DNA of 64,000 nucleotides from an uncultured Bdellovibrionales bacterium (GTDB taxonomy: Bacteria > Patescibacteriota > Minisyncoccia > Moranbacterales > UBA1568), in NCBI GenBank assembly GCA_964436855.1, contig CAYTED010000001.1, forward strand, positions 135,059 to 199,058. Direction: 5' to 3'. Positions 22,752 to 55,026 of this stretch are shown in pieces; positions within the stretch are counted from its first letter, which is position 1; the number at the start of each line of letters is the position of its first letter. The translations under genes were made by a program, and so were the position numbers. The notes beneath the pieces are model-generated. The model was not told the DNA's origin, searched no databases, and worked only from the letters and a program-made list of their open reading frames with translations.

Positions 22752-22824
22752 GGGCCCGTAGCTTAGTTGGTAGAGCACCGCATTTGCAATGCGGGGGTCA
22801 GCGGTTCGAATCCGCTCGGGTCCA
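22752..22824 (+). tRNA. tRNA-Ala (anticodon TGC)
   Basis: Cloverleaf folded by hand. Anticodon loop TTTGCAA. G3:U70 alanine identity pair. No encoded CCA. Confidence 0.85.
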
Positions 22825-22906
22825 CACGGTGCCGAACAAGAAAATTCCAGGCCTTGATTTTTTTGTTCTGTCATTGTATTCTGAGTTGGATTCTTTTCTC
22901 TCTTTT

Positions 22907-22980
22907 GGGTGATTAGCTCAGGTGGTTAGAGCGCGACACTGATAATGTCGAGGTCCCAAGTTCGAGTCTTGGATCACCCA
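22907..22980 (+). tRNA. tRNA-Ile (anticodon GAT)
   Basis: Acceptor GGGTGAT/ATCACCC; anticodon loop CTGATAA. Confidence 0.85.
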
Positions 22981-23003
22981 CAGTCCTTCAAATGGACTCA
23001 TAC

Positions 23004-23077
23004 AGCGGGGTGGAGCAGTCTGGCAGCTCGCCTGGCTCATAACCAGGAGGTCGGTGGTTCAAATCCACCCCCCGCAA
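23004..23077 (+). tRNA. Initiator tRNA-fMet (anticodon CAT)
   Basis: Near-identical to E. coli tRNA-fMet (GCGGGGTGGAGCAG...GGTTCAAATCC...CCCCGCAA). Unpaired 1:72 (A:A). Three G:C pairs in the anticodon stem. Confidence 0.85.
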
Positions 23078-23099
23078 CAAAAGAATAGCGCGAACAAGA

Positions 23100-23173
23100 G
23101 GCAGGGTAGCTCAGCTGGTTAGAGCACAGCACTCATAACGCTGAGGTCGTGGGTTCGAGCCCCACCCCTGCTA
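23100..23173 (+). tRNA. tRNA with CAT anticodon: elongator Met, or possibly lysidine-modified Ile2
   Basis: Acceptor GGCAGGG/CCCTGCT; anticodon loop CTCATAA. A31:C39 mismatch closing the anticodon stem. Confidence 0.7.
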
Positions 23174-23174
23174 C

Positions 23175-23639
23175 TTGAAGTCCGGTATCTGTGGCAAAAT
23201 AAATATGAGATCACCTGAAGGAAATATCGGAAATCCCCCTCTCCATTCCCGCGAAAGAAAAGGAGTGATTTCCAGGGAAGTCTCTTTCAAAGGATCTCCG
23301 ACATGGACAAGAAGAGAAAAGACCGCCGACAGCACCGCTCTCGAACAACCCATTACCGCCGACTCACTTGTTTCTCTTTTTACCAAAAGTGAAATTGGCG
23401 GAGATCTTTCACTCAAAGCCGCATTCGTAGCATTGGTTCAGGAATCAAATCTCGAACCGGAAACACTCACCGCTCTCAAGCAAAAACTCTCGTCGAGCGA
23501 CGTATCCGGACGAACCATGATTCTTGAATGTATGCGTGAATACCTCTCTGCATTGAGAAGCACAGCAAGCGACAAGTCAAAACGACTTGCTGCCGCCCGG
23601 ACCCGGTTCTCCGAAAGTACAAAAGGTTTTCTTCATTAA
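23175..23639 (+). CDS. Hypothetical small protein in the tRNA-Met / tRNA-Asp spacer (start may be the internal ATG at 23205)
   Basis: 154-aa ORF filling a 490-nt spacer inside the tRNA operon. No homology recognised. Confidence 0.25.
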   Translation: MKSGICGKINMRSPEGNIGNPPLHSRERKGVISREVSFKGSPTWTRREKTADSTALEQPITADSLVSLFTKSEIGGDLSLKAAFVALVQESNLEPETLTALKQKLSSSDVSGRTMILECMREYLSALRSTASDKSKRLAAARTRFSESTKGFLH

Positions 23640-23664
23640 AAATTGAAAATTTTGCAAAATTATT

Positions 23665-23741
23665 GGGGACGTAGCTCAGCTGGTTAGAGCGCCACACTGT
23701 CACTGTGGAGGTCGCGGGTTCGAGTCCCGTCGTCCCCGCCA
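23665..23741 (+). tRNA. tRNA-Asp (anticodon GTC), CCA encoded
   Basis: Acceptor GGGGACG/CGTCCCC, G73 discriminator, anticodon loop CTGTCAC, followed by CCA. Confidence 0.85.
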
Positions 23742-23809: not shown

Positions 23810-24193
23810 TTATTTCTGTAACATTTCAAGCTGGCTCCGTATTTCTTCCGAAGTTAACGCGGGCTGCTTGCTTGTCTGACCCGTCTTTTCCAATACTTCA
23901 AGCTGCTTGTCTATTTTTTCCGCCGACGGAGACGCCGACGCATCCCCGTTCGAATCGACCGACTCAAGTTGCTCGAGTTGTTTTTGTATCTCTTCCGACG
24001 AAAGATGGCCACCCTCCTTTTGTGCCTCTATCTTCTTTCCATACATCATGACATCGTTATCGGCTCTACGATTTTTAAATGCAACCACCACCCAAACAAC
24101 CACGCCGACCATCAGCGCAAGTAAAACAACAAGCAACCACTTGAGTTGCGGACGATTCAGAGAATTATGAGATGTTTCATCCTGAACAAACAT
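23810..24193 (-). CDS. Small membrane-anchored protein with three SxEEIxxQLExLE repeats
   Basis: N-terminal TM (WLLVVLLALMVGVVVWVVVAF). Repeats SSEEIQKQLEQLES, SAEKIDKQLEVLEK and TSEEIRSQLEMLQK. Confidence 0.4.
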   Translation of the reverse strand: MFVQDETSHNSLNRPQLKWLLVVLLALMVGVVVWVVVAFKNRRADNDVMMYGKKIEAQKEGGHLSSEEIQKQLEQLESVDSNGDASASPSAEKIDKQLEVLEKTGQTSKQPALTSEEIRSQLEMLQK

Positions 24194-24256
24194 ATATTTT
24201 CTGTTTTTATTTATACATATTCAGTATATATCAAAAAGAAAAAAGAGTAATCCCCC

Positions 24257-25732
24257 CTACCCTTGTCCCAATTTTTTCTTCAAGAGATCGAGCACCATTT
24301 TCGGATTTGCTTTTCCTTTCGTCTTCGCCATCGTCTGTCCCATAAGGTATTGCAACGCATTTTGCTTCCCCGATCGAAAATCGGCAACGGACTGTTCATT
24401 TTCCAAAAGCACCGTATCGACTGCCCCCTCAAGCTCATTCTCATCACTCACCTGTGAAAGATTCAATCGCTCCACAATATGCGACGGATCATTATCACCG
24501 CCCCGATACATTTCGGCAAGCACCGCCTGCGCCGCACTCGAATTGATTTTTCCATCAACAACAAGCCCGATAAATTCCGCATAATTCTCCGGTGTGAAAG
24601 GAATGTCTCGCGCGGACTCCTCCCGTTCAGAGAGGTGTTTTCGAATCTCCGTCAGCATATAGTTCGCCGCAAGCTTCACGGATTTCTGAATATCCGCGGA
24701 GAGTTCTCCGCTTTCGATTTTCTCCGCAATCTCGCTCGCCGTATTTTCAAAAAATTCAGAAAATTCTCGATCCTCGGTAAGAATCACGATATCCGCTTCC
24801 GGCAATTTATACTGCTCTATAAATCGCCACTGTTTCGCATCCGGCAATTCCGGGAGCGATTGTTCAAGTTTCGCAATTTCTTCATCTGAAAACTCAAATG
24901 GTGGAATATCCGGCTCCGGGAAATACCGATAATCATGCGCGGATTCTTTTTTGCGTTGTGAAACCGTCTCGCCGCGATTTTCATCCCAACCGCGAGTCTC
25001 CTGAATGATTTTCCTCCCCGCCTCCAATTCTTCTGTTTGTCGCGCGATCTCAAACTCAATCGCTCGCTCCACGACCTTAAAAGAATTCAGATTTTTGATT
25101 TCCACTTTGGTTCCCGACAATCGATCCGACCCCTCGGGATAGAGAGAAATATTCACCTCGCAACGCATCTGACCCTTCTCCATATCCGCGTCCGACGCAT
25201 CAAGATATCGCAAAATCTGCCGCAACTTCTGACAAAATGCCCGCGTATCTTTTCCAGTTTCAAAATCCGGTTCAGTTACAAGCTCCATAAGTGGCACGCC
25301 CGCACGATTATAATCAACAAGCGTGTATTCTGATCCGGTTGGATGCATCGACTTTCCTGTATCTTCTTCGAGATGAATACGTGTAATACGAAACTCTTTC
25401 CCATTCACCACAAGCTTTCCCTTCTCACAAAATGGTTCATCGTACTGGGAAATCTGATATCCCTTCGGAATATCCGGATAAAAATAATTTTTTCGATCAA
25501 ATTTGGAATGCTTGCGCAGCGTACACGAAAGCGCAAGCCCCACACGCTGCACAAGTTCAATCGCCTTTCGATTCGGCACCGGGAGCGTCCCGGGCTGCGC
25601 GGTACAAATAGGACAAATATGTACGTTTGGATTCTTTTCCAAGCCAAGCCCGTTTTTACACGCACAAAACATCTTGGAGTTCGTTTTCAACTCCGCATGA
25701 ATTTCCATTCCAATGGTAACGCCGTACTGCAT
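24257..25732 (-). CDS. gatB: Asp/Glu-tRNA amidotransferase subunit B
   Basis: MQYGVTIGMEIHAELKTNSKMFCAC N-terminus and overall GatB length and motifs. Confidence 0.85.
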   Translation of the reverse strand: MQYGVTIGMEIHAELKTNSKMFCACKNGLGLEKNPNVHICPICTAQPGTLPVPNRKAIELVQRVGLALSCTLRKHSKFDRKNYFYPDIPKGYQISQYDEPFCEKGKLVVNGKEFRITRIHLEEDTGKSMHPTGSEYTLVDYNRAGVPLMELVTEPDFETGKDTRAFCQKLRQILRYLDASDADMEKGQMRCEVNISLYPEGSDRLSGTKVEIKNLNSFKVVERAIEFEIARQTEELEAGRKIIQETRGWDENRGETVSQRKKESAHDYRYFPEPDIPPFEFSDEEIAKLEQSLPELPDAKQWRFIEQYKLPEADIVILTEDREFSEFFENTASEIAEKIESGELSADIQKSVKLAANYMLTEIRKHLSEREESARDIPFTPENYAEFIGLVVDGKINSSAAQAVLAEMYRGGDNDPSHIVERLNLSQVSDENELEGAVDTVLLENEQSVADFRSGKQNALQYLMGQTMAKTKGKANPKMVLDLLKKKLGQG

Positions 25733-25746
25733 ACTTTCAAATTAAA

Positions 25747-26172
25747 TCAATGCGATCCTGTGCTCCCAAACCCATTCGATCCGCGATCGCTTTCCGGTAA
25801 ATCAGTTACTTCTTCAATATCCGGATGTTCCACTTTTTGAATAAGAATCTGTGCTACTTTTTCTCCTGCAGAAAACGACAATGTTTCATGAGAAAGATTT
25901 TTTGCAATCACCACAACTTCTCCTCGATATCCAGCATCGATCACCCCACCCATCACCTTCAGGCCTTTTTTCAAAGCGACTCCCGATTTGTCCCATATCA
26001 ATCCAACATACCCTTCCGGAATCACAAACGCAAGACCAGTCGGAATTCCCTTGCGATCCCCTGATAAAAACTCAATTGCCTCCCGAGAACAAAGATCCAA
26101 TCCTGCATCACTTGAAAGTGCAAACATTGGAATTTTCGCTTCCGGAAAAAGTTTTTTGACGAGAAGTTTCAT
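25747..26172 (-). CDS. dut: dUTP diphosphatase
   Basis: dUTPase motifs SSDAGLDL, GLIWDKSG and GFGSTG. Confidence 0.85.
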   Translation of the reverse strand: MKLLVKKLFPEAKIPMFALSSDAGLDLCSREAIEFLSGDRKGIPTGLAFVIPEGYVGLIWDKSGVALKKGLKVMGGVIDAGYRGEVVVIAKNLSHETLSFSAGEKVAQILIQKVEHPDIEEVTDLPESDRGSNGFGSTGSH

Positions 26173-26188
26173 GCTTTATATATATCCT

Positions 26189-26908
26189 TTATATTACTTT
26201 TGCAACTTCATTCCAAACCATTTCTGCAATAATTTCACGCGAAAGCAATTCTTTCTTCCGAGTACATGTAATTTTCACCCAAGTATTATTTTCCTGTACG
26301 AGCTTCATGGCACTCTTTCGAGAATCATCAAGATGTTTATGATTTGATTCAGCAACATCTTTTTTACCTCGAACAAAGCGATTCTGCGAAATCCCTTGTT
26401 TTTTTTGGCTCAACAATTCGTCAGAGACCTCTCTTGGTACATCAAGATAAAGAATAAGATCTGGTCGTGGCAACTGAAAAATACCAAATTCCATTCGGTT
26501 GAGCCATTGTAAAAATTCTTTTCGCTTCTTATAACTATGAATCTTTCCGCCTTGGTGCATTTGATTCGCACTCACATACCTATCACACACAACAATGTAT
26601 CCGTTTTGAAGCCATTCTTCTATTTTCTTTTTTGACTCAAAACGATCAGCTGCATAGAGTACCGACGCGATATGAGGATCGATCGAAAGAAAATCACCAT
26701 ATTCCCCCGAGAGACATCTCCCGATAAGTTCTCCAAAAAAATTATGTTCGTATCGTGGAAAATCAATAGTTTTTACTCGTCTCTTCTCTTTTTGTAACCG
26801 ATTCACAAGAATTGACACCTGCGTCGCTTTTCCTGAACCATCTGCACCATCAACAACAACCAAAAATCCCTTCTTTGATTTCTTTCCCATACTCTCGGAA
26901 AACAACAA
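26189..26908 (-). CDS. tmk: Thymidylate kinase
   Basis: VVVDGADGSGKAT P-loop and a DRY-like LID region (CDRYVSANQ). Confidence 0.8.
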   Translation of the reverse strand: MLFSESMGKKSKKGFLVVVDGADGSGKATQVSILVNRLQKEKRRVKTIDFPRYEHNFFGELIGRCLSGEYGDFLSIDPHIASVLYAADRFESKKKIEEWLQNGYIVVCDRYVSANQMHQGGKIHSYKKRKEFLQWLNRMEFGIFQLPRPDLILYLDVPREVSDELLSQKKQGISQNRFVRGKKDVAESNHKHLDDSRKSAMKLVQENNTWVKITCTRKKELLSREIIAEMVWNEVAKVI

Positions 26909-27499
26909 TTACTGTGTTACTTTCTTTTTCAATTCTTCCACCATTTTGTCCACCTGCGCATACAATTCCTCCAAAGTACCGTCATTATTGATGATAAACT
27001 CCGCTCGATCTTTGAGCTCGGAAATACCCGTCTCGGTTTCAAGCTTGGCATCCTTTTCAAATTGCGCCTCCGTTTTAGTCGCATCATCGGCATTTTGTCG
27101 GCGTTTCGTCAGTCGCTCATAGCGCGTCTCAGGAGATGCCTCGATAAAACAAAAGTAAAAATGCTCGCTCGCTTCCATATGCACGATATCCGGAAACCGC
27201 CGCACACCATCGACCACGACAAACTCTTTCTCGCTCGCCTCCGCTTCAGAAAGAATCACCTTGGAGAGAATATCTTCGCCAAATCCCTTTCGAAGATGCA
27301 GCGAGAGTGTCGAGAGATTCTTTCTCGTATGTTCGAGTCCAATTCTATCCAAAATATCCCGAAGCGGCTGCGAAAAACGAAGCTTCAAAGCACCATGCTT
27401 CTCGGCGAGATAATCCCCGACAGCATCTTTTCCCGAAGCAATTTCCCCCGCTGTTCCTAAAATGATTTTTGACATATTGTGCGCGTGTTCACATTCCAA
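26909..27499 (-). CDS. P-loop kinase resembling phage T4 gp1-type dNMP kinase
   Basis: ILGTAGEIASGKD P-loop with a GKD variant. Paralogous to 32581..33138. Abuts tmk. Confidence 0.45.
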   Translation of the reverse strand: MECEHAHNMSKIILGTAGEIASGKDAVGDYLAEKHGALKLRFSQPLRDILDRIGLEHTRKNLSTLSLHLRKGFGEDILSKVILSEAEASEKEFVVVDGVRRFPDIVHMEASEHFYFCFIEASPETRYERLTKRRQNADDATKTEAQFEKDAKLETETGISELKDRAEFIINNDGTLEELYAQVDKMVEELKKKVTQ

Positions 27500-27519
27500 A
27501 TTACCTCTTCCCTATCCTC

Positions 27520-30372
27520 TCAATTTCCGCCCCGTTTCGCAAGTAGAGCCTCAAAAACCTCCGGAAAATCCTCAAAAACCTTCCCGAGATGAAGCGTTTG
27601 TCCGGAACGGATTTTTGCAAGATCTCCGCTTGTGATCCCATATTCCCGAGCCAGTGTTTCTTTTGGAAGTTCAGAAAGTCGACTAACAGTATTCTCAACA
27701 AGCGTATTTAACTCTCCGGTGGTTATTCCCTCAAATCGTGAATCGGAAAGCATCATCTCTTTCAACCCCTTCCAGACCGATCCGCCAGAAGATACTTTGT
27801 ATTCATACGACACCGTATCAATCGCACTCGATACATCCGGAATGGTCGTCGGAGAGGTAATTTCTCCAACCGCCAATCGCGACCCTAATGCCGGTTCTGA
27901 AAACGAAGCGGGCTCGAGTCCAAGCGATTGTCGAAGAGACACTACCGCATCATCAAGCGATCGTAAAAAACTCTCGATTTTCGGAAACTCAAAATCGATC
28001 CGATCAAGCGCTGGTTTTACAATACCATCGGAAAAAAGCGCGCCCGCATACGAAAACGCGCCGGCGGTGAGCGCGCCAAGGGATGTTTTTTGCACAATAT
28101 GCAGCCATTTTGCGCGATCTATTCGATGTTTTCTTGTATCAAGCACCGAAGATACCCGGTCCGAAAGCGCCTTGCTTACCGATTGATTTCCGCTCGAGAG
28201 AATCACTTCCGCCCTCGAAAGTTCCTGCAAAAGTGAAAGTTGTCGCAAAAACTGCTCATCCCCATCACCAAAAGCAATCAATCCATCCACGAGTTTCCTC
28301 CGAGTATAATCCACCCGCGCCCGCAAACGCTCCCGCATATCTCCATGCAATCGCTCAAGCACCTTTGAATCCAAAAGAGACTTGTCTTCCCCGGCACTCT
28401 TGGAAACCTTCCGTCGAGCCGCCTCGGCACGAAATTTCATTTTCCGAAAAAGCGGGCTTTCCTTATCAATACTGAATTCTTTCTCGATAATTTTTCGTTC
28501 ATCTTCGAGTTTTCTGATCAGCGACTCGACAGAAACAAAATTTTTCTCATACTTTTTGGTTTCTTTTTCAGATCGCACTTTCCCTCCATATCGGGTTTCT
28601 ACGGCATTTTCCTTGAGTTGTTGATTTGCCCGCATACCGGAAAAAATCGCCCCGCATACCGCCGGAGCGGCAATCCAGCCAAGCGTCTCCTTCACCACGG
28701 ATCGCGCAAGGATACCAAAAGCAAAGTATCCCGCATGTTCACCAAAAACACCCGTCGAAATCCGTCGCCACAAACTTGGATTTTTCGACGCATAAAATCT
28801 CCGCTCAAGCTCGGAATCTTCCCCGACCATTCGTCGAAGCTCAATTTGCGTATCCGTTTCATTGATTGCCACCAAAACATCTTTCAGATCAATACCCGTC
28901 TCTTTTTTTCGCGCAATCACGGAAGAAAATGACTGGAGGAGTTGATCTCTTGATTTTTCGTATTCCTTCTTGTTCTGTTGATATAATTCCCGATGCTCTG
29001 CGCTCGCATCCGGAAACGACCACTCATACGGAATCTCGGAAAGTTTTCGAGCGGCGGTATTCAATGTTGCCGAAGCATCCCGAACAGCGTCATTGGTTTC
29101 CAGAGAAAATTCTTTTGCGGAGAGAGAAAAAAAATCCACATTGAGTTTCCCAGAAACTCCGAATGACGCATCCGGTCCGTTTTTTGTTTTCTCAAGCAAA
29201 TTTCTCAACACTTCGCCATGGCTTTCCATTCCGGCGCTTCGAAATTCTTGTACCGTAAGGCGTTTTGTTTTTTCCAAACGAGCCGATCGAGAAAACGAAA
29301 GCCAAATGCGCCGAAAAAAACCGTCCGCATTCGATTCTTCTTCCGTGATTTTCCGACGGGATTCGGCATCGAGCCTGCCAAGCGTCGCGTATCGCATATT
29401 TTCAAACAGAAGTCGCTTTTTCCCATCAGAAAGCTTTTGAAATTCCGGAAAAGAAGCGAGTTCTTCTTTTGAAATTCCAAACTCTTTTTGAAAGAACACA
29501 TTCGTCCGCTCGACCTCATTTTTTTGGATTTCGCTCGCATCACTCCGACGTTTTTTCTTATCCAGAGCCGCGAGTCGAGCAGCTTTTTCTTTTCGTTGCT
29601 CGTGCATCAGAAGCAATTTTTTCCGATCAGCCTGTATTGTTTCTTTCAAAGAAGCGCGCTCATCTTCAGAAGCACCCAAGCTCGGCAGACGAGAAAAAAC
29701 TCGCTGCAATAAATTTTGCTTTTGAGAAAACGAGTCTTCCAATTTCTTGAGTCGGCGTTTGTTTGACTCAATGTCATCCATGAGCGAAACAACATCTCGA
29801 TCAATCTGTTCAAGAGAAGACGCGAGCACATGCCGGCCTATGTCTTCGTTTTCTTCCTCCGAAAGAACGCTTTCTCCAGCACCTTCAGCAATATCTTGTT
29901 CCGCTTCCTGAATAATCTCTTCGGGTGTCTGTACTTTTTTCGGTGCTTCCGATTCGTGAGATTCCTCTTCCTCAGGAAAATTGTCATCAACCGTTTTTTC
30001 TTCTATGGGCTCACCGGAAGGCGAGTCATTTATTTCTTGAGCACGCTTCGAAGAACGCTGACGAGAGAGTCCTTGCTGTTTCAGTTCGTTGAACACACGC
30101 TGAACACCCTGAGGAGAAATCATTCCCGAAAGATCATCGAGAGAGACTATCGATTGGCCTGCAGACTCACCCTCACGATGAAAAACCATCGCCTTCACCG
30201 GAACAAGAGGATCTCGTTCATCACGATACACGGAAACATTGTTCCCGCTTTCCTTATCAACAAAAGAAAATAAAACGAGTTTTTCCCGTTTCTGATCTCC
30301 CTCCTGCACATGAGGATCCAAATTTCTCAAACGATGAACCAAATCATCTCTGTCCGGACTTTTTTGTTTCAT
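27520..30372 (-). CDS. Giant (950 aa) charged, coiled-coil-rich protein with predicted internal TM helices; unknown function
   Basis: Long acidic and coiled-coil stretches. Hydrophobic segments HAGYFAFGILARSVV...AAPAVCGAIFSG and TSLGALTAGAFSYAGALF. Weak LysM-like C-terminus (ETLAREYGITSGDLAKIRSGQTLHLG). Confidence 0.5.
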   Translation of the reverse strand: MKQKSPDRDDLVHRLRNLDPHVQEGDQKREKLVLFSFVDKESGNNVSVYRDERDPLVPVKAMVFHREGESAGQSIVSLDDLSGMISPQGVQRVFNELKQQGLSRQRSSKRAQEINDSPSGEPIEEKTVDDNFPEEEESHESEAPKKVQTPEEIIQEAEQDIAEGAGESVLSEEENEDIGRHVLASSLEQIDRDVVSLMDDIESNKRRLKKLEDSFSQKQNLLQRVFSRLPSLGASEDERASLKETIQADRKKLLLMHEQRKEKAARLAALDKKKRRSDASEIQKNEVERTNVFFQKEFGISKEELASFPEFQKLSDGKKRLLFENMRYATLGRLDAESRRKITEEESNADGFFRRIWLSFSRSARLEKTKRLTVQEFRSAGMESHGEVLRNLLEKTKNGPDASFGVSGKLNVDFFSLSAKEFSLETNDAVRDASATLNTAARKLSEIPYEWSFPDASAEHRELYQQNKKEYEKSRDQLLQSFSSVIARKKETGIDLKDVLVAINETDTQIELRRMVGEDSELERRFYASKNPSLWRRISTGVFGEHAGYFAFGILARSVVKETLGWIAAPAVCGAIFSGMRANQQLKENAVETRYGGKVRSEKETKKYEKNFVSVESLIRKLEDERKIIEKEFSIDKESPLFRKMKFRAEAARRKVSKSAGEDKSLLDSKVLERLHGDMRERLRARVDYTRRKLVDGLIAFGDGDEQFLRQLSLLQELSRAEVILSSGNQSVSKALSDRVSSVLDTRKHRIDRAKWLHIVQKTSLGALTAGAFSYAGALFSDGIVKPALDRIDFEFPKIESFLRSLDDAVVSLRQSLGLEPASFSEPALGSRLAVGEITSPTTIPDVSSAIDTVSYEYKVSSGGSVWKGLKEMMLSDSRFEGITTGELNTLVENTVSRLSELPKETLAREYGITSGDLAKIRSGQTLHLGKVFEDFPEVFEALLAKRGGN

Positions 30373-30375
30373 ACT

Positions 30376-30879
30376 TCAAGGCTGTGTATTCCTCTCCAGA
30401 GTAACAAAAGAGAATGCATACTGTCCATGATTCTTTTTTTCCTCAGTCGCAACAGGAGAAAAAAATGACTCATACTCGGGGAAAAAAGTATCGGCCTCAA
30501 ATAATCCTTCAACAAGCGTCAGGTACAGCCGATCGGCAAAAGGGAGCATCTGCCCATACACGCTCGCCCCACCACAAATAAAGACTTCGTCCTGCTCCAC
30601 TTCACGAGCCTTGAGAAGTGCCTCGTCGACCGAACGAACCACCACCACTCCTTCCGGAGAAAAATCCGGATCAAGCGAAAGCACGATATTTGTCCGATTG
30701 GGAAGCGGCTTGCCAATAGAGTGATACGTTTTCTCTCCCATGATAATCGCGTGCCCCGATGTCGTTTCTTTGAAATGCCGAAAATCTTCCGGAATATGCC
30801 ACAGAAGTTTATTCTGAAAGCCAATAGCCCGATCCTTCCTTGCGATCGCGGCGATCATGCTGATAACTGGTGTATTCAT
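30376..30879 (-). CDS. folA: Dihydrofolate reductase
   Basis: ISMIAAIARKDRAIGFQNKLLWHIPEDFRHFKETTSGHAIIMGEKTY and GGASVY motifs. Confidence 0.8.
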   Translation of the reverse strand: MNTPVISMIAAIARKDRAIGFQNKLLWHIPEDFRHFKETTSGHAIIMGEKTYHSIGKPLPNRTNIVLSLDPDFSPEGVVVVRSVDEALLKAREVEQDEVFICGGASVYGQMLPFADRLYLTLVEGLFEADTFFPEYESFFSPVATEEKKNHGQYAFSFVTLERNTQP

Positions 30880-30935
30880 TCTTTCTTTTTCATTTCAAAA
30901 AATCTTTGGCTTCTCCTCAGAAGAGTGTCCGCACA

Positions 30936-31853
30936 CTACACTGCAATCGGCGCTTTGATCGGTGAGTGTGATTCGTACCCCTCTAAAGTAAAGTCGTCAA
31001 GAGTAAAGCCAAAAATATCTTTCACCGCTGGATTGAGTTTGAGAGTCGGAAGTTTTTTTGGCTCACGCGCAAGCTGAGTTCGTACCTGATCAAAATGATT
31101 TTTATACAAATGCACATCACCACCCGTCCATACAAACTCTCCCGGGAGAAGATCACACACTTGCGCTATCATCATAGTCAAAAGCGAATAAGAAGCAATA
31201 TTGAACGGAACTCCAAGAAACGTATCACAACTTCGTTGATAGAGCTGACAAGAAAGTTTTCCGTTGGCGACAAAAAACTGAAACAAACAATGGCACGGAG
31301 GCAATCCCGACTTGGCCATTTCCTCAATATCCGCCACATTCCATGCTGACACAATCAGCCGTCTCGAATCCGGCGTTTGTTTGATTTGTTCAATTATCTG
31401 TGTAATCTGATCGATATGCCGACCATCCGGTGTCGGCCATGAGCGCCACTGATATCCGTAAATCGGACCGAGCTCTCCGTACTCTTTCGCAAATGCCTCA
31501 TCCGTCTTCACTCGATCGACAAATTCTTTGAGCCCCTTCGTCCACTCTTCCGATCCGGATGGCGGCACAGGCTGCCCCGTTTTCTCAAGATACCCTTTGT
31601 ATGGCCACTCATCCCAAATATGCACATCATTTTCCGCGAGGTATCGAAGATTCGAATCTCCCTTGAGAAACCACAAAAGCTCATGGATAATTGCCCGCAA
31701 GGCCATTTTTTTGGTCGTCAAAAGAGGAAACCCCTCGGAAAGATCAAAACGCATCTGATGGCCAAAGACCGCCCGTGTCCCCGTGCCGGTCCGATCGGTT
31801 TTATCGACGCCCTTTACCACGATATGCCAGAGAAGATCTTGGTATTGTTTCAT
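30936..31853 (-). CDS. thyA: Thymidylate synthase (ThyA) with a small-domain insertion
   Basis: [13 protein letters not shown], the active-site region [10 protein letters not shown] and the C-terminal GDVHLYKNH. 305 aa, like the long ThyA forms. Confidence 0.85.
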
Positions 31854-31908
31854 ATATACTGTTTCAGATTATTGAGAGAAAAGGCAAACACCTGGTAGCA
31901 ACAATCGG

Positions 31909-32490
31909 TTATTTTTTCTTGAAATTCAAATGCATTTTCGATGCGACCGGCTTGGTATCCCCATAATATTTACTATTGAGTCCCTTGGATCCATACGGCC
32001 GCTCACACGGCGACGAAAGATACTCAAAGGCCATCTGACCGATCGGCATGCCGGCATACAGCTTTATCGGGAGCTTCCCCGCATTAAACAGTTCGAGCGT
32101 CATTTTGAGACGATTACCTGCATCCAGAAATCCGGCTGTCGTATGAATAATCAGCCCAAGCCGTCCAAGCGAGCTCTTCCCTTCCAGTCGTCCAACGATC
32201 TTGTCGGACACACCGGTCTCTTCAAGCAGTGTCCCGAGCGCAAACTCCCCCGGATGAAGCACAAACGCCTCATTTTTTTTGATCTCGATTTCCTTCATCA
32301 AGTTCTCCGCCGGAGACTTTGGGTCGATCACAAAATTTTGATTGATATTGAAAATAAGAAAGTGCTTATCAAGATGCACATCATAACTCGCCGGCTGAAC
32401 ACAGTCGCTCTTAAACGGCTTAATCGTGATTTCTTTGCTGCGAATCTCTTTTCGAATATCCCTGTCCGAAAGAATCATAGGCGTTCTCAA
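31909..32490 (-). CDS. dcd: dCTP deaminase
   Basis: MILSDRDIRKEI N-terminus and dUTPase-fold motifs. Confidence 0.75.
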   Translation of the reverse strand: MRTPMILSDRDIRKEIRSKEITIKPFKSDCVQPASYDVHLDKHFLIFNINQNFVIDPKSPAENLMKEIEIKKNEAFVLHPGEFALGTLLEETGVSDKIVGRLEGKSSLGRLGLIIHTTAGFLDAGNRLKMTLELFNAGKLPIKLYAGMPIGQMAFEYLSSPCERPYGSKGLNSKYYGDTKPVASKMHLNFKKK

Positions 32491-32580
32491 TAAATTAGCT
32501 CGCCCTCCTAAAGTATCCCCATCATACCAGATATATTTTCCCTACACAAAGCCATTTTTTGCAATAAACACCCACCCCTG

Positions 32581-33138
32581 TCAATGAAGAATGTTCGCCA
32601 TCACCGTATCGGTTGCGGCAAGAAGCTCCTCGAGCCCCCGATCATTTACGATTGTAAAATCCGCCTTCGCACCGATTTCCGGAATATGCACCTCGGTCGG
32701 AGCTTGTTCCAATCGTTGAAAATACTCAAAACTCTCACTGTCATCAGATTTTTCGCCTCGCTTATGCGCTCGTTCCCAACGCAATTTTTGAGGCGCCGTA
32801 ACATAAATCACGAAACTCGACTCAAACTGTTTAACAAAATCATAATCCTCCAAAAACCGGAGTCCGTTAACTGACACCAGCCCTTCCGCCGCCTCAATAT
32901 GTGGTTTGAGCGCCTTTCCAAGGATATCTTTTCCAAATCGCTCTTTCAGAAGCATCGCAAGCCACTGCTGATCATCTTTAGAAAACCGCTCGAAATAAAG
33001 CGAAAGCGTTTCTTTGATCGGATCAGCGAAACGCAGAAGATGCGCCTCGTAGCGTGTTTTCAAATAATGCGCGACCGTATCCTTTCCCGATCCTGTCTCT
33101 CCAACCAGACCGACAATCACTTTCTTTTTTCCATTCAT
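32581..33138 (-). CDS. P-loop kinase resembling phage T4 gp1-type dNMP kinase (paralog of 26909..27499)
   Basis: VIVGLVGETGSGKDTVAHYL P-loop. Same architecture as the other paralog. Confidence 0.45.
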   Translation of the reverse strand: MNGKKKVIVGLVGETGSGKDTVAHYLKTRYEAHLLRFADPIKETLSLYFERFSKDDQQWLAMLLKERFGKDILGKALKPHIEAAEGLVSVNGLRFLEDYDFVKQFESSFVIYVTAPQKLRWERAHKRGEKSDDSESFEYFQRLEQAPTEVHIPEIGAKADFTIVNDRGLEELLAATDTVMANILH

Positions 33139-33253
33139 GAATTTTCAGAATATGTTTTTAAAAAACACACACATTTTACCAATACCGCCGCGCATCGTCA
33201 AAACAAAATCGCGCCACTCAAAGAGCAACGCGATTTCTTATGCCAAGAAAAAT

Positions 33254-33961
33254 TTACAGAGCGACCCGAACACTCGGGCCCATCGTCGAGCAAACCGATA
33301 CGGAAACAATTAGCTTTCCCTTTACGGATGCCGGCTTCGCCTTTCCAACCGCATCAAGAAGCACATCGTAATTCTTCCGGAGCGATTCCGAAGAAAACGA
33401 AAGTTTCCCGATAATCTGATGAATACTTCCGCCGTCATCGCTCTTGAAACTCACTTTCTTTCCCTTCTTCATCATCTCGACCGTCTCGGCAATCTTCGGC
33501 GTAACGGTCTCCGTTTTTGGAGACGGCATCATTCCTCTCGGTCCGAGGATTTTCGCCGCCGGCGCAAGTTTCGGCATCATTTCCGGTGTCGCAAGCAGTA
33601 CGTCAAACTGCGCGCCCGGGACAAGCTTTCCGGATTTGATATCGTCGATCAATTCCTGTCCGCCGACAAGATCCGCGCCCGCGTCTTTCGCTTCTTTTTC
33701 TTTTGTCGAGGTAACAACCGCGACTCGCTTGGTCTTCCCGGTTCCTTCCGGAAGCGCAACCGTCGCGCGAACCTGTTGATCCGTTTTTTTCGGATCAATC
33801 GACAATCGGACATGAATCTCGACCGATTCGTCAAACTTCGCCACAGGCTTCGCCTGAAGAAGCGCCAACGCCTCTTCGAATGCGTATTCCTTTCCAATTT
33901 CGATCGTGTCCGCGATCGCGCGGTAATTCTTTCCGTGCTTCATATGATTTTTGTGGTTCAA
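33254..33961 (-). CDS. rplA: 50S ribosomal protein L1
   Basis: KFDESVEIHVRLSIDPKKTDQQVRATVALPEGTGK... Confidence 0.9.
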   Translation of the reverse strand: MNHKNHMKHGKNYRAIADTIEIGKEYAFEEALALLQAKPVAKFDESVEIHVRLSIDPKKTDQQVRATVALPEGTGKTKRVAVVTSTKEKEAKDAGADLVGGQELIDDIKSGKLVPGAQFDVLLATPEMMPKLAPAAKILGPRGMMPSPKTETVTPKIAETVEMMKKGKKVSFKSDDGGSIHQIIGKLSFSSESLRKNYDVLLDAVGKAKPASVKGKLIVSVSVCSTMGPSVRVAL

Positions 33962-34101
33962 GCGAGATCAAGCATCTCTCCCACCTCATTAAAAATAATT
34001 TTGAATTGAAAATTTTGAATTTCGAATCAATTCTCCAATGAACGAATTCCGATTTAAAAAAATTCAAAATTCATTCAAAATTGGAAATTCGAAATTAAAA
34101 A

Positions 34102-34524
34102 TTACTCTGTTACCCTAATCCCCATCGACCGCGCCGTTCCTTCGATAATTCGCATCGCCATTTCAACATCATGTGCGTTCAAATCGGTCATTTTCTTTTC
34201 CGCGATCTCTCTTACCTGCGCCTTCGTTACCGACCCGACTTTATTCTTGAGCGGATTTCCGGCGCCCTTCTCGACTTTCGCCGCCTTCTTCAAAAGCTCG
34301 GCCGCTGGCGGCGTTTTGAGAACAAAAGTAAACGTCCGGTCTTCGTACACGGTAATTTCCGCCGGCGTCACCTCTCCCATTCGATCCTTGGTCGCCTCGT
34401 TAAACTTCGTGCAAAAGTCCTGAATATTGAGCCCGTGCTGACCAAGCGCTGGACCAACCGGAGGAGCCGGATTTGCCCGCCCGCCCGGAATCTGCAATTT
34501 AATAACCGTTTTGATTGCTTTTGC
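34102..34524 (-). CDS. rplK: 50S ribosomal protein L11
   Basis: [35 protein letters not shown]... The listed ORF extends 19 codons upstream; the start at MAKA is preferred. Confidence 0.9.
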
Positions 34525-34676
34525 CATAATTCTTCTCGTAAATAATCCGATCTTACTCTCATTCATTTCAACATCCATCATTTCATCTTTCTCCTATCAA
34601 ACGAGAAGCACATTTGATCATTGAAAAATTTGAATATTGATTGGAAATTGAAAATTCGAAATTGAAAATTTTTTCT

Positions 34677-35222
34677 TTACACTTTCTTAATCTGGAGAAA
34701 ATCAAGTTCGACTGGCGTCTCGCGACCGAAAATCGAAACAAGTACTTTTACTTTTCCTTTTTCATCGTCAACTTCCTGAATCTTTCCTTCAAAGCTCTTG
34801 AATGGCCCGTCCATAATCTTCACTGGGTCATTGACGGCAACATCGATCTTGTATTTCGGCTCCTCAACACCCATCCGTTTCTTCAGACCATCGATTTCCT
34901 TCGGATCAATCGGGGTCGGCGTCGTTCCAAGACCGATAAATCCGGTTACATTTGGCGTATTGCGCACCACATACCACGACGCATCCGTTACAATCATATC
35001 GACAAGCACATACCCCGGATAGATTCGCTCTTCCACGGTCGTGCGCTTTCCGCCCTTGATTTTGATCTTTTTTTCCTTCGGGACCATTACGTCAAAAATA
35101 AGATCCTGCATATCCATCGACTCAATACGCTGTTTCAGATTGCGCGACACGTTATCCTCATACCCCGAATAGGTGTGAAGCACATACCAAGCGCGACCGT
35201 GATGCTGTGTTTGTTTCGCCAT
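34677..35222 (-). CDS. nusG: Transcription termination/antitermination factor NusG
   Basis: N-terminal NGN domain (WYVLHTYSGYE) and C-terminal KOW (VKIMDGPFKSFEGKIQEVD). Confidence 0.9.
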   Translation of the reverse strand: MAKQTQHHGRAWYVLHTYSGYEDNVSRNLKQRIESMDMQDLIFDVMVPKEKKIKIKGGKRTTVEERIYPGYVLVDMIVTDASWYVVRNTPNVTGFIGLGTTPTPIDPKEIDGLKKRMGVEEPKYKIDVAVNDPVKIMDGPFKSFEGKIQEVDDEKGKVKVLVSIFGRETPVELDFLQIKKV

Positions 35223-35237
35223 ATATCGATGAAAAAA

Positions 35238-35423
35238 TTAGCGAATAAAATATTCTTTAACCAAAAAACTGAATAACCAATCAAGCGTTCCAAGAAATGT
35301 CGCCACAACAATCGAAAGCACGATAACGGTCATCGTATACCGAAACACCTGGACACGATTCGGCCAGCTTACTTTTGCAAGCTCGATCCTCGCTTCTTTG
35401 AAAAAACCAAAAATCGCCCGCAT
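35238..35423 (-). CDS. secE: Preprotein translocase subunit SecE
   Basis: 61 aa with a single TM helix. KEARIELAKVSWPNR motif. Conserved position upstream of nusG. Confidence 0.75.
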   Translation of the reverse strand: MRAIFGFFKEARIELAKVSWPNRVQVFRYTMTVIVLSIVVATFLGTLDWLFSFLVKEYFIR

Positions 35424-35426
35424 ATA

Positions 35427-35624
35427 TCAAAACTTGAAAGAGCTGCCGGAGACTTGAGCGTCATTCGACTCGAATCGTTCCTGATAGGCGAAGAAGTGCA
35501 CCAAATCCGACAGTTCCGCGGTATTAAAAAAGCCCCGAGGGCCTATATTGAAAGAATAGTACTTCTTTCCCGTTTCGTCAACTTCAATGTAAAAACCTGA
35601 AGAGGCCCAAACACACAGCATCAA
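35427..35624 (-). CDS. Hypothetical small protein, not L33-like
   Basis: 65-aa ORF in the position normally held by rpmG/tRNA-Trp. No zinc ribbon and no L33 motifs. Confidence 0.3.
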   Translation of the reverse strand: MMLCVWASSGFYIEVDETGKKYYSFNIGPRGFFNTAELSDLVHFFAYQERFESNDAQVSGSSFKF

Positions 35625-35723
35625 ACAAAGCGCTCTTCCTAATTTTTAAAACGTAAACTTCTCTCTTGTGGATTTCGTGCCTTGTATTGTGTTTGATTTT
35701 CGCGCTTTCTGCCTTGTATTTTT

Positions 35724-36275
35724 CTATATCAGTTCCATTTCCTCGAAAAACACCCGATACAGACCCATCACGCGCTCCGCCTCGGACAGATCAATCTCAA
35801 ACGTTGCATCATTCACGATACGATTCCGAATTGAATGCGCCTCAAGGAGGGCCGAGAGCGTTTCAATATGCCCCGCGGGAATATTTGAAAGTCGCTCCCC
35901 CATATCCTTCCCGGTGTATCGCGACGATGCAAGAATCTTATCCGCAAGGGCATCCGCCTCAAGAATTGCCGCTTTGTACTGCGACGGATTACCACTTTCC
36001 AAACGACTGGCGATATTTCGAAAAAATCGTTCGCCGCCGGATTTCCCAAACCGCAACGGACGAAAGTCCGATCCGAGAAGATTCATTTTGAGATCGCGAC
36101 CGACTCCGCGAAGCGACAAAAGAATGACGATATCGATAAAAAGGACTACTACGTAAACGAGAAGTAAAAACTTGATCGTGCGCACAATGGCAAGATGATT
36201 CACCACTTCAAGCGTCATCGGTGCACCAAACAGAATCTGCGTGAGAATGCCGACAAAATCGATATCGGTATACAT
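35724..36275 (-). CDS. Membrane protein of unknown function
   Basis: One strong TM helix (LLLVYVVVLFIDIVILLSL); no recognisable motif. Confidence 0.4.
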   Translation of the reverse strand: MYTDIDFVGILTQILFGAPMTLEVVNHLAIVRTIKFLLLVYVVVLFIDIVILLSLRGVGRDLKMNLLGSDFRPLRFGKSGGERFFRNIASRLESGNPSQYKAAILEADALADKILASSRYTGKDMGERLSNIPAGHIETLSALLEAHSIRNRIVNDATFEIDLSEAERVMGLYRVFFEEMELI

Positions 36276-36298
36276 ACTGTTTTGTTTTTGAGAACCAT

Positions 36299-37753
36299 CT
36301 AAAGCGACTCAAATGCATCCGCGACTCGGAGCATTCCCTCTTCATCATACCACTTCGCCGAAAGCTGCCCGCCAATCGGAAGATGTTTCCCTTCTTCTTC
36401 GATCGTCCCTATTGGAAACGATATCGCCGGAATGCCGGAAAGATTCGCTGTTACGGTATAGATATCCGAAAGATACATTCGAAGCGGATCATCGGACTTT
36501 GCGCCAAACCGAAATGCCGCCTCCGGTGTCGTTGGCGAAAAGACAAAATCAATCTCCCGAAACGCTTTTTCAAAATCTTCCCGAACGAGTTTTCTCACCG
36601 CCTGTGCCTTCTTGTAATACGCGTCGTAATACCCCGCTGAAAGTGCGTAGGTCCCAAGCATAATTCGACGTTTCACTTCCGAACCGAATCCGTATTTTCT
36701 CGTATCAAGATAGGTTTCAAGAAGATTTCCAGACCCGGGAAGCGTTTCTTCCCGATCATTTATGGAAAGTCCGTACCGAATACCATCAAATCGAGCAAGA
36801 TTCGAACTAACCTCGCACGGCATCACAATATAGTATACCGGAAGCGCGTACTTCGAATGCGGTAAAGAAATGTCTCGTATCTCCGCGCCGAGTGATCGAA
36901 ACTTCGCAACTGCATCGTCAAATACTTTTCGCACGCACGGATCCAAGTCATCCGAAAGATACTCTTTGGGAATACCGATTTTTATACCAACAATATCCTT
37001 CGTAAGAAAACTCGTATAGTCCCGTCCATCGCTCTGTCCGGTGGTCGCGTCCTTTGTATCGCTGCCGGAAATCGTCGAAAGGACAATCGCTGCGTCTTCA
37101 ACCGTTTTCGTAAACGGCCCGATCTGATCCAAGCTCGACGCCATCGCCGAAACACCGTATCGAGAAACTCGTCCGTATGTCGGTTTCACCCCAACCAACC
37201 CGGTAAAAGCCGCCGGCTGTCGAATTGATCCTCCGGTATCCGATCCGAGCGCCCATACCGCCATATCTCCCGCGACTGCTGCTGCGGATCCGCCCGATGA
37301 ACCCCCGGGGACACGCTCCGGATCAACAGGATTTTTTGTTGGTCCATATGCACTCGATTCGGTCGACGATCCCATCGCAAACTCGTCCATATTCGTCTTC
37401 CCAAGGAGAATAGCATTCGATTCCTTCAGCTTCCGAATAACCGTCGCGTCATACGGCGAAATGTAATTATCGAGAATCTTTGAACCCGAAGTCGCCCGAA
37501 CGCCGGCAACGCAGATATTGTCTTTGATCGCCCCCGGAATACCGGCAAGCATTCCAATAGGCGCACCGCTCAAAATTTTCTCATCAACAAACGCCGCATC
37601 TCGAAGCGCGGACTCCTCAATGATCGTGAGATACGCATTCAAATGAGGATTTTTTTCCTGAATCGATCGCAGATACCCTGCTGTCAACTCGACGGCGGTG
37701 ATTTCCTTCCCGAGTAATTTTTGATGCAAATCGCGAATCATACTTTGATACAT
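36299..37753 (-). CDS. gatA: Glu-tRNA(Gln) amidotransferase subunit A
   Basis: Amidase signature GGSSGGSAAAVA and the catalytic Ser/Lys context. Confidence 0.9.
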   Translation of the reverse strand: MYQSMIRDLHQKLLGKEITAVELTAGYLRSIQEKNPHLNAYLTIIEESALRDAAFVDEKILSGAPIGMLAGIPGAIKDNICVAGVRATSGSKILDNYISPYDATVIRKLKESNAILLGKTNMDEFAMGSSTESSAYGPTKNPVDPERVPGGSSGGSAAAVAGDMAVWALGSDTGGSIRQPAAFTGLVGVKPTYGRVSRYGVSAMASSLDQIGPFTKTVEDAAIVLSTISGSDTKDATTGQSDGRDYTSFLTKDIVGIKIGIPKEYLSDDLDPCVRKVFDDAVAKFRSLGAEIRDISLPHSKYALPVYYIVMPCEVSSNLARFDGIRYGLSINDREETLPGSGNLLETYLDTRKYGFGSEVKRRIMLGTYALSAGYYDAYYKKAQAVRKLVREDFEKAFREIDFVFSPTTPEAAFRFGAKSDDPLRMYLSDIYTVTANLSGIPAISFPIGTIEEEGKHLPIGGQLSAKWYDEEGMLRVADAFESL

Positions 37754-40528: not shown

Positions 40529-41113
40529 TCAATTCACAATTCCCGATTCCTTGTAATCACGCAAGGAAACCGTCGTCTGTATTCGGACATTTCTCGTGGA
40601 AGTCGAACTCTCCTTCACGACAAACACGATAGTCACCCTCCCAACCGCCGCCGGACCCGGTGTCGGGCTCGCCGAAGGAATGACGCTAAAAACCGGAACG
40701 ACATCGCCGGTAGTAACTCTCGTATACGCACCCAAATTCAATACCCCGGTGCAATTATCGCGAAGCGTCTGTGGCGGAACGGCGGCCGGAGGAACTACCG
40801 ATGCCTTTTCAAGAAAATTTCCTCCCGAATTTTTCTTATATTCGATACACTTGTTTTGAGAATAATCAAAAAAACGAACGCGGGTCGTACCTGAACTGAT
40901 AATCGTGCTCGTCCGAAGCTGCTTCGCGATATCGTTTATCGTAAATTGCGCGTTTTCCGTATCTCGTTCGATTCGCTTATTCTCGCGATATGAAAAAATC
41001 CCGGAGCTAAATGTCGACGATGCCGCCATCATCATAAGCGAAAAAACGAAAATAGAAACCATCACCTCGATCATCGAAAGACCGGAAAAAAGTTTTTGTG
41101 AAATTCGTTTCAT
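40529..41113 (-). CDS. Prepilin-type minor pilin/pseudopilin
   Basis: N-terminal KLFSG-LSMIEVMVSIFVF: G at -1, E at +5, then a hydrophobic helix. Confidence 0.6.
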   Translation of the reverse strand: MKRISQKLFSGLSMIEVMVSIFVFSLMMMAASSTFSSGIFSYRENKRIERDTENAQFTINDIAKQLRTSTIISSGTTRVRFFDYSQNKCIEYKKNSGGNFLEKASVVPPAAVPPQTLRDNCTGVLNLGAYTRVTTGDVVPVFSVIPSASPTPGPAAVGRVTIVFVVKESSTSTRNVRIQTTVSLRDYKESGIVN

Positions 41114-54866: not shown

Positions 54867-55026
54867 ATGTTTGTTCTCTTTTTTTCTTTTGATGTTTCTT
54901 TCAAGAAAAAGTATACCACAACTCTCCCATCCGTATCCAGTACGCAAACCCTATCGCTATTCTTCTTTCATTTCCCCCTCAATTTCTTTATCGCTCATTG
55001 TCAAAGATCCGTTATCCGATATTCAA

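Follow-up and report, generated by a model that had tools for sequence, protein, structure and literature searches.

Two predicted (deoxy)nucleoside monophosphate kinases in a conserved deoxypyrimidine gene cluster of Moranbacteria

Which enzymes carry out the monophosphate kinase steps of deoxynucleotide supply in a bacterium with a reduced genome? This question is raised by a stretch of 64,000 nucleotides (nt) of contig CAYTED010000001.1 (hereafter the window, meaning the whole stretch that was analyzed), in which two genes for small P-loop proteins, kinA and kinB, lie among genes of thymidylate synthesis. In the original prediction, made for positions 26189–33138 of the window, both proteins were described as deoxynucleoside monophosphate (dNMP) kinases of the bacteriophage T4 gp1 type that bracket a pyrimidine gene set and constitute a compact module for all four deoxynucleoside diphosphates (dNDPs) in a reduced genome. 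The observation was partly confirmed and its interpretation is partly supported; the reduced genome agrees with the names of homologs, which place the DNA in a lineage of the candidate phyla radiation (CPR). On balance, kinA and kinB probably encode two subfunctionalized (d)NMP kinases with an adenylate-kinase fold that serve deoxynucleotide salvage. The two genes are located as follows.

32581–33138, minus strand: kinB, P-loop kinase of 185 amino acids (aa) with a predicted adenylate-kinase fold and the Walker A motif GETGSGKDT; first gene after rplA
26909–27475, minus strand: kinA, paralog of kinB with 188 aa and the Walker A motif GEIASGKDA

Both Walker A strings of the prediction, GEIASGKDAV in kinA and GETGSGKDTV in kinB, are exact, and the paralogy of the two P-loop proteins was borne out as well (33% identity over 180 aa, E 5e-30). 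The size of about 190 aa is close for kinB and for kinA read from ATG, the start chosen by gene callers, while a 196-aa open reading frame (ORF) from TTG is not on record. Each paralog has more than 100 homologs among the matches listed, at 53–85% identity, and the GKD loop is kept in 120 of the 120 kinB-type and 115 of the 120 kinA-type homologs among these matches; the named ones come from Candidatus Moranbacteria/Moraniibacteriota and from other Parcubacteria. Judged by sequence, kinA and kinB each form a conserved orthogroup in Moranbacteria (Parcubacteria). Moreover, 11 positions are at least 85% conserved inside each paralog family yet differ between the families, several of them in the predicted nucleoside monophosphate (NMP)-binding segment (residues ~36–60), which argues for different acceptor substrates of the two paralogs.

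The closest relative of solved structure is SSO1041, a protein of family UPF0200 (3H0K, 3LW7), which resembles kinA and kinB in length (~180 aa) and fold and is retrieved by PDB sequence search with E ~1e-11 for single sequences and 1.6e-21, over the full length, for the family profile. AF2 models of the two proteins (predicted local distance difference test, pLDDT, 90.6 for kinB and 89.9 for kinA) both have as best Foldseek match 3LW7, in which SSO1041 is bound to AMP, with template modeling (TM) scores of 0.81/0.88 for kinB and 0.78/0.86 for kinA and root-mean-square deviations of 2.3–2.5 Å; the next matches, at TM ~0.6–0.67, are UMP/CMP kinases, adenylate kinases, and CoaE. SSO1041, kinA, and kinB share the DGxR, R..R...R, DD, and C-terminal ND motifs, and the best NCBIfam match of all three is NF006226/PRK08356, whose full-length matches (kinA E 4e-27, 95.1 bits; kinB E 2e-17, 63.8 bits) do not reach the cutoff of 189. 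However, SSO1041 differs in its GKS loop, its archaeal origin, and an identity of only 21–24%, and, since it has no assigned function, it adds no functional assignment to kinA and kinB. A literature search returned nothing on the function of SSO1041/UPF0200, nor on dNMP kinases in CPR bacteria.

A profile alignment to AK1 (3ADK) covers the full length at E 3e-6 and, because it is remote, gives provisional residue equivalences. K42 of kinB and R39 of kinA are paired with R44 of AK1, R94 of the (D/N)GxR motif with R97, R123 with R128, R127 with R132, and D132-D133 with D140-D141, all of them AK1 residues which we take to be catalytic. These aligned positions are invariant or nearly so over 86 kinA and kinB sequences, except for K42/R39, which is paralog-specific. 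The core sought for an NMP kinase, comprising the P-loop Lys, an NMP-site Arg/Lys, the (D/N)GxR Arg, two lid Arg, and the DD pair, was found, from which kinase activity may be presumed. In kinB, the position aligned with AK1 Gln101, presumably a base-reading residue, is D98, at +4 after (D/N)GxR. It is occupied by Asp in all 240 kinA- and kinB-type sequences among the matches listed; of 101 wider representatives in which the motif occurs, 99 carry an acidic residue there, Asp or Glu.

The kinship with T4 gp1 stood in one respect and fell short in another. Both proteins pass the gathering score of Pfam DNMK (PF21448, the T4 gp1 family; 31.7 bits for kinA and 35.9 for kinB vs 27.1), and nearly all homologs among the matches listed carry a precomputed PF21448 match, but the match is restricted to model positions 3–67 of 232, the likeness to gp1 itself is confined to the first ~40–60 residues, and neither model has 1DEK, the gp1 structure, among its 50 best structural matches. 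T4 gp1 (1DEK/1DEL) has in common with kinA and kinB an SGKDT P-loop followed by the motif P-(I/L)-K-D-x-L, whereas it is a protein of 241 aa with a different middle region. A C-terminal stretch of ~25 residues (ITNDGSLEEL-type) matches 1DEK weakly and without significance (domain E 31). Thus, kinA and kinB appear to be only distant relatives of the T4 enzyme. In the profile comparison set beforehand, of DNMK with CoaE and cytidylate kinase, DNMK passed, whereas CoaE, Cmk, and Adk failed, and the condition that was to refute the prediction thus did not arise. The phage family PHROG_139, which has no curated cutoff and whose name, "dNMP kinase", is an annotation, matches over the full length (kinA, residues 6–193, E about 1e-20 to 9.6e-20; kinB, residues 1–184, E 2.4e-24), dNMP kinase is also the name of many top viral predicted-structure matches in BFVD, and Pfam AAA_17 additionally matches kinA. 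By their sequences, the two proteins would belong to a clade that joins phage "dNMP kinases" (DNMK, PHROG_139) and archaeal UPF0200/PRK08356 proteins.

The wider family comprises 4,206 cluster representatives at E ≤ 1e-10, and its loop reads GK-x-T, where x in the top 149 representatives is G in 48, D in 36, T in 9, and S in 5. Therefore, GKD, which had been put forward as a signature of T4 gp1, is a trait of a subfamily; it was rejected as a marker of T4 gp1-type enzymes, as GKG is commoner in the family and GKS is the loop of both SSO1041 and the closest phage homolog. The names given to the phage homologs are inconsistent and include dNMP kinase, dephospho-CoA kinase, and adenylate kinase. 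An animal-type phosphomevalonate kinase was also considered, from weak matches (PF04275 in some homologs; 3CH4 at TM 0.72), and set aside in view of far sub-threshold scores and the nucleotide-metabolism context. Natural fusions exist in the family: P0299 (387 aa) and P0308 (379 aa) are tandem fusions of an SSO1041-like half (GMPGxGKG) and a kinA/kinB-like half, and in P0283 (248 aa) a family kinase continues without a gap into an adenylate kinase N-terminus. These architectures hint that paralogs may work together or beside Adk.

Phage homologs supply a second line of evidence. Translated searches (tblastn) matched 40 phage records, nearly all of large Bacillus phages, at 27–31% identity over the full length. 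The homolog in Bastillevirinae (Herelleviridae), e.g., gp19 of phage Moonbeam, aligns with 98% probability over 173 columns (hhalign), and in Moonbeam and Xoo-sp15 it is flanked by genes for thymidylate synthase and dihydrofolate reductase, both of which are also partners in the window, although the Bastillevirinae proteins differ from kinA and kinB in having GKS, extra insertions, a single copy, and inconsistent annotation. In the Bacillus siphovirus KLEB27-1, a homolog lies near dut and thyX. The substrates of T4 gp1 are cited as dGMP, dTMP, and hydroxymethyl-dCMP, and those of the T5 enzyme as all four dNMPs (PMC10653934). A cellular bacterium that depends on a T4-type dNMP kinase is already known: in P. 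putida, the essential TMP kinase activity comes from PP_1964, which takes the place of a tmk interrupted by the prophage-like island that carries PP_1964 (PMC10653934). PP_1964 and kinA/kinB would be alike in that a cellular bacterium relies on a phage-type dNMP kinase in deoxynucleotide metabolism; unlike in P. putida, tmk is intact here, and the kinase is represented by two paralogs, both dating back to the ancestor of an entire CPR lineage.

A third setting is that of the anti-phage dCTP/dCMP deaminases (DcdV; PADLOC dCTPase, NF041025), whose kinase-like domain is remotely related to kinA and kinB over the full length of the domain (E 7e-7, profile positions 153–331 of 630); SSO1041 also matches the NCBIfam model of anti-phage dCTP deaminase. 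In DcdV-type proteins this domain is joined to a zinc deaminase in one polypeptide and has a role in defense, whereas kinA and kinB are stand-alone proteins (185–188 aa) among housekeeping genes. No PADLOC match was obtained for dcd or for the neighboring 950-aa ORF (ORF950), and kinA and kinB match the kinase-like part alone, for which reasons a defense system was rejected. Several related loci hold three paralogs, and a third paralog with a GKS loop (GLPGSGKS) lies directly after kinB at L012:10662-11210 and L027:10623-11222 (L numbers denote related loci). The third paralog is the nearest of the three to the deaminase-associated domain (PADLOC dCTPase E 8e-13). The settings in Moranbacteria, beside phage thyA/folA, and in deaminase fusions link the clade to deoxypyrimidine nucleotides three times independently.

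The neighborhood of kinA and kinB in the window is composed of the following genes and sites, listed in the minus-strand order with the promoter candidate at its place. The positions of kinB (after rplA) and kinA (after ORF950) were given above.

36299–37753, minus strand: gatA, upstream of the secE block
35724–36275, minus strand: 183-aa protein of no assigned function
35238–35423, minus strand: secE
34677–35222, minus strand: nusG
34102–34581, minus strand: rplK
33254–33943, minus strand: rplA, closing the secE-nusG-rplK-rplA block as upstream boundary (Pfam Ribosomal_L1; tblastn with E. coli RplA, E 8e-44)
33173–33201, minus strand: sigma-70-like promoter candidate, TTGACG-17-TAAAAT with TG, within the 115-nt rplA–kinB spacer; a consensus match only
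31909–32478, minus strand: dcd, dCTP deaminase, 189 aa as called (TIGR02274, 189.8 bits, cutoff 92.8; Pfam DCD, E 3e-44; gene call in L002)
30936–31853, minus strand: thyA, thymidylate synthase (TIGR03284, 464.8 bits; Pfam Thymidylat_synt, E 1e-120)
30376–30879, minus strand: folA, dihydrofolate reductase (Pfam DHFR_1, 173 bits)
27520–30372, minus strand: ORF950, near-orphan protein of 950 aa, ORF only, 3 nt downstream of folA
26189–26890, minus strand: tmk, thymidylate kinase, 233 aa as called (Pfam Thymidylate_kin, 74.8 bits, gathering score 27; TIGR00041, 82.7 bits, just below its cutoff of 83.25; gene call in L002)
25747–26172, minus strand: dut, dUTPase (NF001862, 128 bits, cutoff 103; Pfam dUTPase, E 1e-28)
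24257–25732, minus strand: gatB, downstream boundary (Pfam GatB_N and GatB_Yqey; same flanks in related loci)

Every gene across 24–38 kb of the window lies on the minus strand, and the predicted set of tmk, dut, folA, thyA, and dcd is present on it, backed by curated models: dcd, thyA, and dut score above NCBIfam equivalog cutoffs, and folA and tmk above Pfam thresholds. The layout drawn in the prediction requires three corrections. The set is not contiguous, as ORF950, which went unmentioned, separates folA from kinA and takes up 41% of the named span; dut falls outside that span; and the kinases do not bracket the set, since in the order kinB-dcd-thyA-folA-ORF950-kinA-tmk-dut both tmk and dut lie beyond kinA. 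The genes are tightly spaced, by 3–44 nt from folA to gatB and by 55–115 nt from rplA to folA. The promoter candidate in the rplA–kinB spacer is the top sigma-70-like match in 24000–36500 (10/12), a region in which such matches overall are not more numerous than in shuffled sequence, and a search of the window with Rfam found five tRNAs only, with no leader or riboswitch in the cluster. The genes gatB and gatA stand ~10.5 kb apart, with secE-nusG-rplK-rplA and the entire deoxypyrimidine cluster between them; many related loci have gatB after the cluster, and in L004 and L006, the two closest relatives, gatA comes before secE.

In a synteny survey, 80 species-representative related loci were mapped with the proteins of the window. 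Among the 74 loci whose sequence extends upstream of kinB, 47 have rplA ahead of it. Among the 50 loci with ≥6 kb downstream, 38 (76%) have one or more of the genes dcd, thyA, folA, tmk, and dut within 10 kb of kinB, and 31 have a kinA-type paralog downstream. This arrangement is not due to chance, as it recurs in other species-level Moranbacteria genomes. In Moranbacteria, kinA and kinB are fixed together with dcd, thyA, folA, tmk, and dut in an array whose genes point the same way and stand close to one another, directly behind secE-nusG-rplK-rplA. The claim that the cluster occupies the place after rplA where rplJ-rplL-rpoBC would be expected proved correct, as kinB follows rplA and none of rplJ, rplL, rpoB, and rpoC occurs in the window. 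In relatives, rplJ-rplL lies upstream of secE (L049) and rpoBC 5–7 kb downstream of kinB (L022 and L038); with these genes located elsewhere, the break after rplA is real and lineage-wide. Metagenome-assembled genomes labeled "uncultured Bdellovibrionales", "Micavibrio", and "Pseudobdellovibrionaceae" (L004, L017, L019, L022, and others) bear a Moranbacteria-type secE-nusG-rplKA-kinB locus with kinB 50–86% identical, and these labels are therefore taken as errors of binning or taxonomy.

Several other activities have to be weighed against the role of kinA and kinB as (d)NMP kinases of deoxynucleotide salvage. Dephospho-CoA kinases (DPCK; CoaE-like) placed beside thymidylate genes by accident are suggested by JGI automatic annotation, which names many homologs so, by weak N-terminal matches to Pfam CoaE (E 6e-4 and 4e-3) and TIGR00152, and by CoaE structures at TM ~0.6. 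However, both proteins fail the CoaE cutoffs with coverage of the P-loop region only (PF01121, 19.9 and 17.4 bits vs 27; TIGR00152, 24.4 and 26.3 bits vs 65.55), tblastn with E. coli CoaE is blank in the window and the 80 loci, the neighborhood with deoxypyrimidine genes is kept in both bacteria and phages, and the archaeal look-alikes TK1334 and TK2192 of T. kodakarensis (arCOG01045, annotated as DPCK), which from their size and primer-encoded N-termini would belong to the same family as SSO1041/PRK08356, had no DPCK activity when purified (PMC6650551). The CoaE assignment was rejected on these grounds and is very improbable. Other kinase families fared no better, with no Cytidylate_kin, ADK, or Guanylate_kin Pfam match at E ≤ 0.1 for either protein and 16 bits for archaeal Cmk (TIGR02173) vs a cutoff of 102. 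It is likewise highly unlikely that kinA and kinB are nucleotide-binding regulators or sensors instead of metabolic kinases, an idea inspired by the remote likeness (E ~7e-7) to the PADLOC dCTPase kinase-like domain and by the requirement of this domain for deaminase function in DcdV (bioRxiv 10.1101/2021.03.31.437871); against it, both proteins stand alone without a deaminase domain, the adjacent dcd is an ordinary dUTPase-fold dCTP deaminase (TIGR02274) lacking a PADLOC match, and the full catalytic constellation is invariant.

Kinases of deoxynucleosides, not nucleotides, which would convert salvaged thymidine or deoxycytidine into monophosphates upstream of tmk and thyA, would also suit a salvage cluster, and weak C-terminal matches to Pfam dNK (E 0.0014 and 0.05) and to the deoxynucleoside kinase structure 6YBH (E 0.0024) point to them. 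Nevertheless, the dNK matches are partial and far below threshold, the best structure, 3LW7, holds AMP, the full-length family matches are annotated as monophosphate kinases, and the alignment to AK1 keeps the (D/N)GxR motif, the lid arginines, and the NMP-site Arg/Lys, which we take to bind the phosphate of the acceptor; thus, this alternative is improbable. General ribonucleotide NMP kinases, e.g., of the UMP/CMP or AMP type, whose linkage to the cluster arose by operon drift after the ribosomal-protein block, form a rather unlikely alternative. In its favor, the nearest structure solved is an AMP complex, the next-best matches are AK1 and UMP/CMP kinases, the most constant neighbor of kinB is rplA and not a nucleotide gene, and bacterial Cmk normally acts on both CMP and dCMP. 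On the other side, the association with thyA and folA recurs independently in phages, a related domain is fused to deaminases of deoxycytidine nucleotides, and genes of the dTMP pathway lie within 10 kb in 76% of the loci with enough sequence.

Whether the pair could by itself provide all four dNDPs, as the original prediction had it, is answered by the other kinases of the region. A tmk is part of the cluster itself, pyrH is encoded in the window (2604–3299, minus strand), and four relatives carry a canonical gmk ~4 kb from kinB, so kinA and kinB are not self-sufficient for all four dNDPs. The pyrH gene is of the archaeal type (TIGR02076, 196.5 bits, above cutoff, against 56 bits with the bacterial pyrH model), and this archaeal-type UMP kinase parallels kinA and kinB, whose closest solved relative is likewise archaeal. 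The gmk of L019 (canonical Guanylate_kin, Pfam E 1e-35) lies upstream of kinB, and tblastn with E. coli Gmk also located it in L061, L026, and L028; kinB as a general replacement of gmk was rejected given this co-occurrence. At L019:5931-6932 the gmk domain is part of a 333-aa ORF with an extra ~140-aa C-terminal part, in the order rpsA-gmk-tilS-ftsH-kinB that L061, L026, and L028 also display. Many bacteria keep cmk beside rpsA; there is none beside rpsA in L019. Searches of the window and the 80 loci by tblastn returned nothing for E. coli Cmk, while E. coli Adk had a single short match (31 aa, E 1e-4), which fell on the position of a kinA-type paralog in L008. No cmk, adk, or coaE was thus found in 1.25 Mb of sequence (the window and 1.19 Mb of neighborhoods), which covers gene neighborhoods and not whole genomes. 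Two overlapping small P-loop ORFs lie farther off in the window (62440–62988 and 62985–63515, minus strand), one AAA_33-like and the other nearest to PRK08118, "DNA topology modulation protein" (120 bits, below cutoff); by their sequences, they are possible additional kinases of nucleotides or other small molecules.

Several results weigh against the assignment of kinA and kinB to deoxynucleotide salvage. The evidence for a preference of deoxy over ribo substrates is gene context and nothing else, and the literature gave no measured activity for the close family (kinA, kinB, Herelleviridae homologs, SSO1041/UPF0200, PRK08356), while the phage dNMP kinase names are annotations that disagree with one another. 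T4 gp1 aligns only N-terminally, over 39 columns at 87% probability (hhalign) and, by profile, over the N-terminal 38 residues of 1DEK, and neither T4 nor T5 phages are among the phages matched by tblastn. A canonical Gmk accompanies kinB in four relatives. Moreover, the composition of the cluster varies among related loci, and L094, with rplA-dcd-thyA-folA-ORF-kinA-tmk-dut, has no kinB at that spot.

The protein inserted in the cluster, ORF950, has 33% charged residues and no transmembrane-like segment, and it gave no Pfam, NCBIfam, PADLOC, or PDB sequence match. Its single homolog among 5.8 billion proteins (44% identity) is encoded at the same position in L094 (3506-6280), where it begins 4 nt before folA ends, and ORF950 is absent from the 80 related loci. 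The protein is fast-evolving yet positionally retained in a housekeeping cluster. Elsewhere in the window, five tRNA genes (Ala-TGC, Ile-GAT, Met, Met, Asp; 22752–23741) make up the sole plus-strand island within a long run of minus-strand genes; the usual place of the tRNAs Ala-TGC and Ile-GAT is the 16S–23S spacer, but no rRNA was found in the window. A TrwB/TraG-type coupling protein with a zinc finger is encoded at 12508–14538, and a PaaX_M/Cas2-like protein at 43860–44501.

How would two (d)NMP kinases operate in such a cell? Nucleotides are not made de novo in Patescibacteria, for which DNA uptake via comE and pili has been proposed (PMC9530719); the breakdown of imported DNA would then supply dNMPs as feedstock. 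The window carries type IV pilus genes that bear on this idea (40529–41113, 42062–42610, 49997–51082, 51672–53441, and 54303–54947; pilin-like N_methyl proteins and a PilN match), and two P-loop ORFs among them are read as PilT- and PilB-like from Walker A motifs alone. Each of kinA and kinB would phosphorylate a (deoxy)nucleoside monophosphate to the diphosphate at the expense of ATP. The reaction that best fits the context would be that of dCMP to dCDP, from which a diphosphate kinase step would form dCTP; dCTP would then be converted to dUTP by dcd, to dUMP by dut, to dTMP by thyA and folA, and finally to dTDP by tmk. The second paralog would act on a different (d)NMP.

In Parcubacteria, cmk, gmk, and tmk are poorly represented while adk is common, which Nelson and Stegen, 2015, called puzzling (PMC4508563). 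It is tempting, although doubtful, to regard kinA and kinB as the non-orthologous (d)NMP kinases behind the shortage of cmk and gmk, one of them being a (d)CMP kinase that feeds dcd, and as a first functional lead for UPF0200/PRK08356. The latter probably corresponds to arCOG01045, a family found in nearly all archaea. The gene for the archaeal GMP kinase had not been identified by 2014 (PMC4177761); if this tentative view holds, the family would contain a candidate for it. If kinA and kinB are instead ordinary redundant NMP kinases, the result would amount to a routine correction of annotation, from "AAA family ATPase" or "dephospho-CoA kinase" to "(d)NMP kinase". Since their nearest relatives are an archaeal orphan family and inconsistently annotated phage genes, assays of kinA and kinB would inform three groups at once. 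For nucleotide-recycling Patescibacteria, kinA and kinB, sited at the locus of deoxypyrimidine conversion, are clear candidates for the monophosphate kinase steps that have been reported as scarce (PMC4508563).

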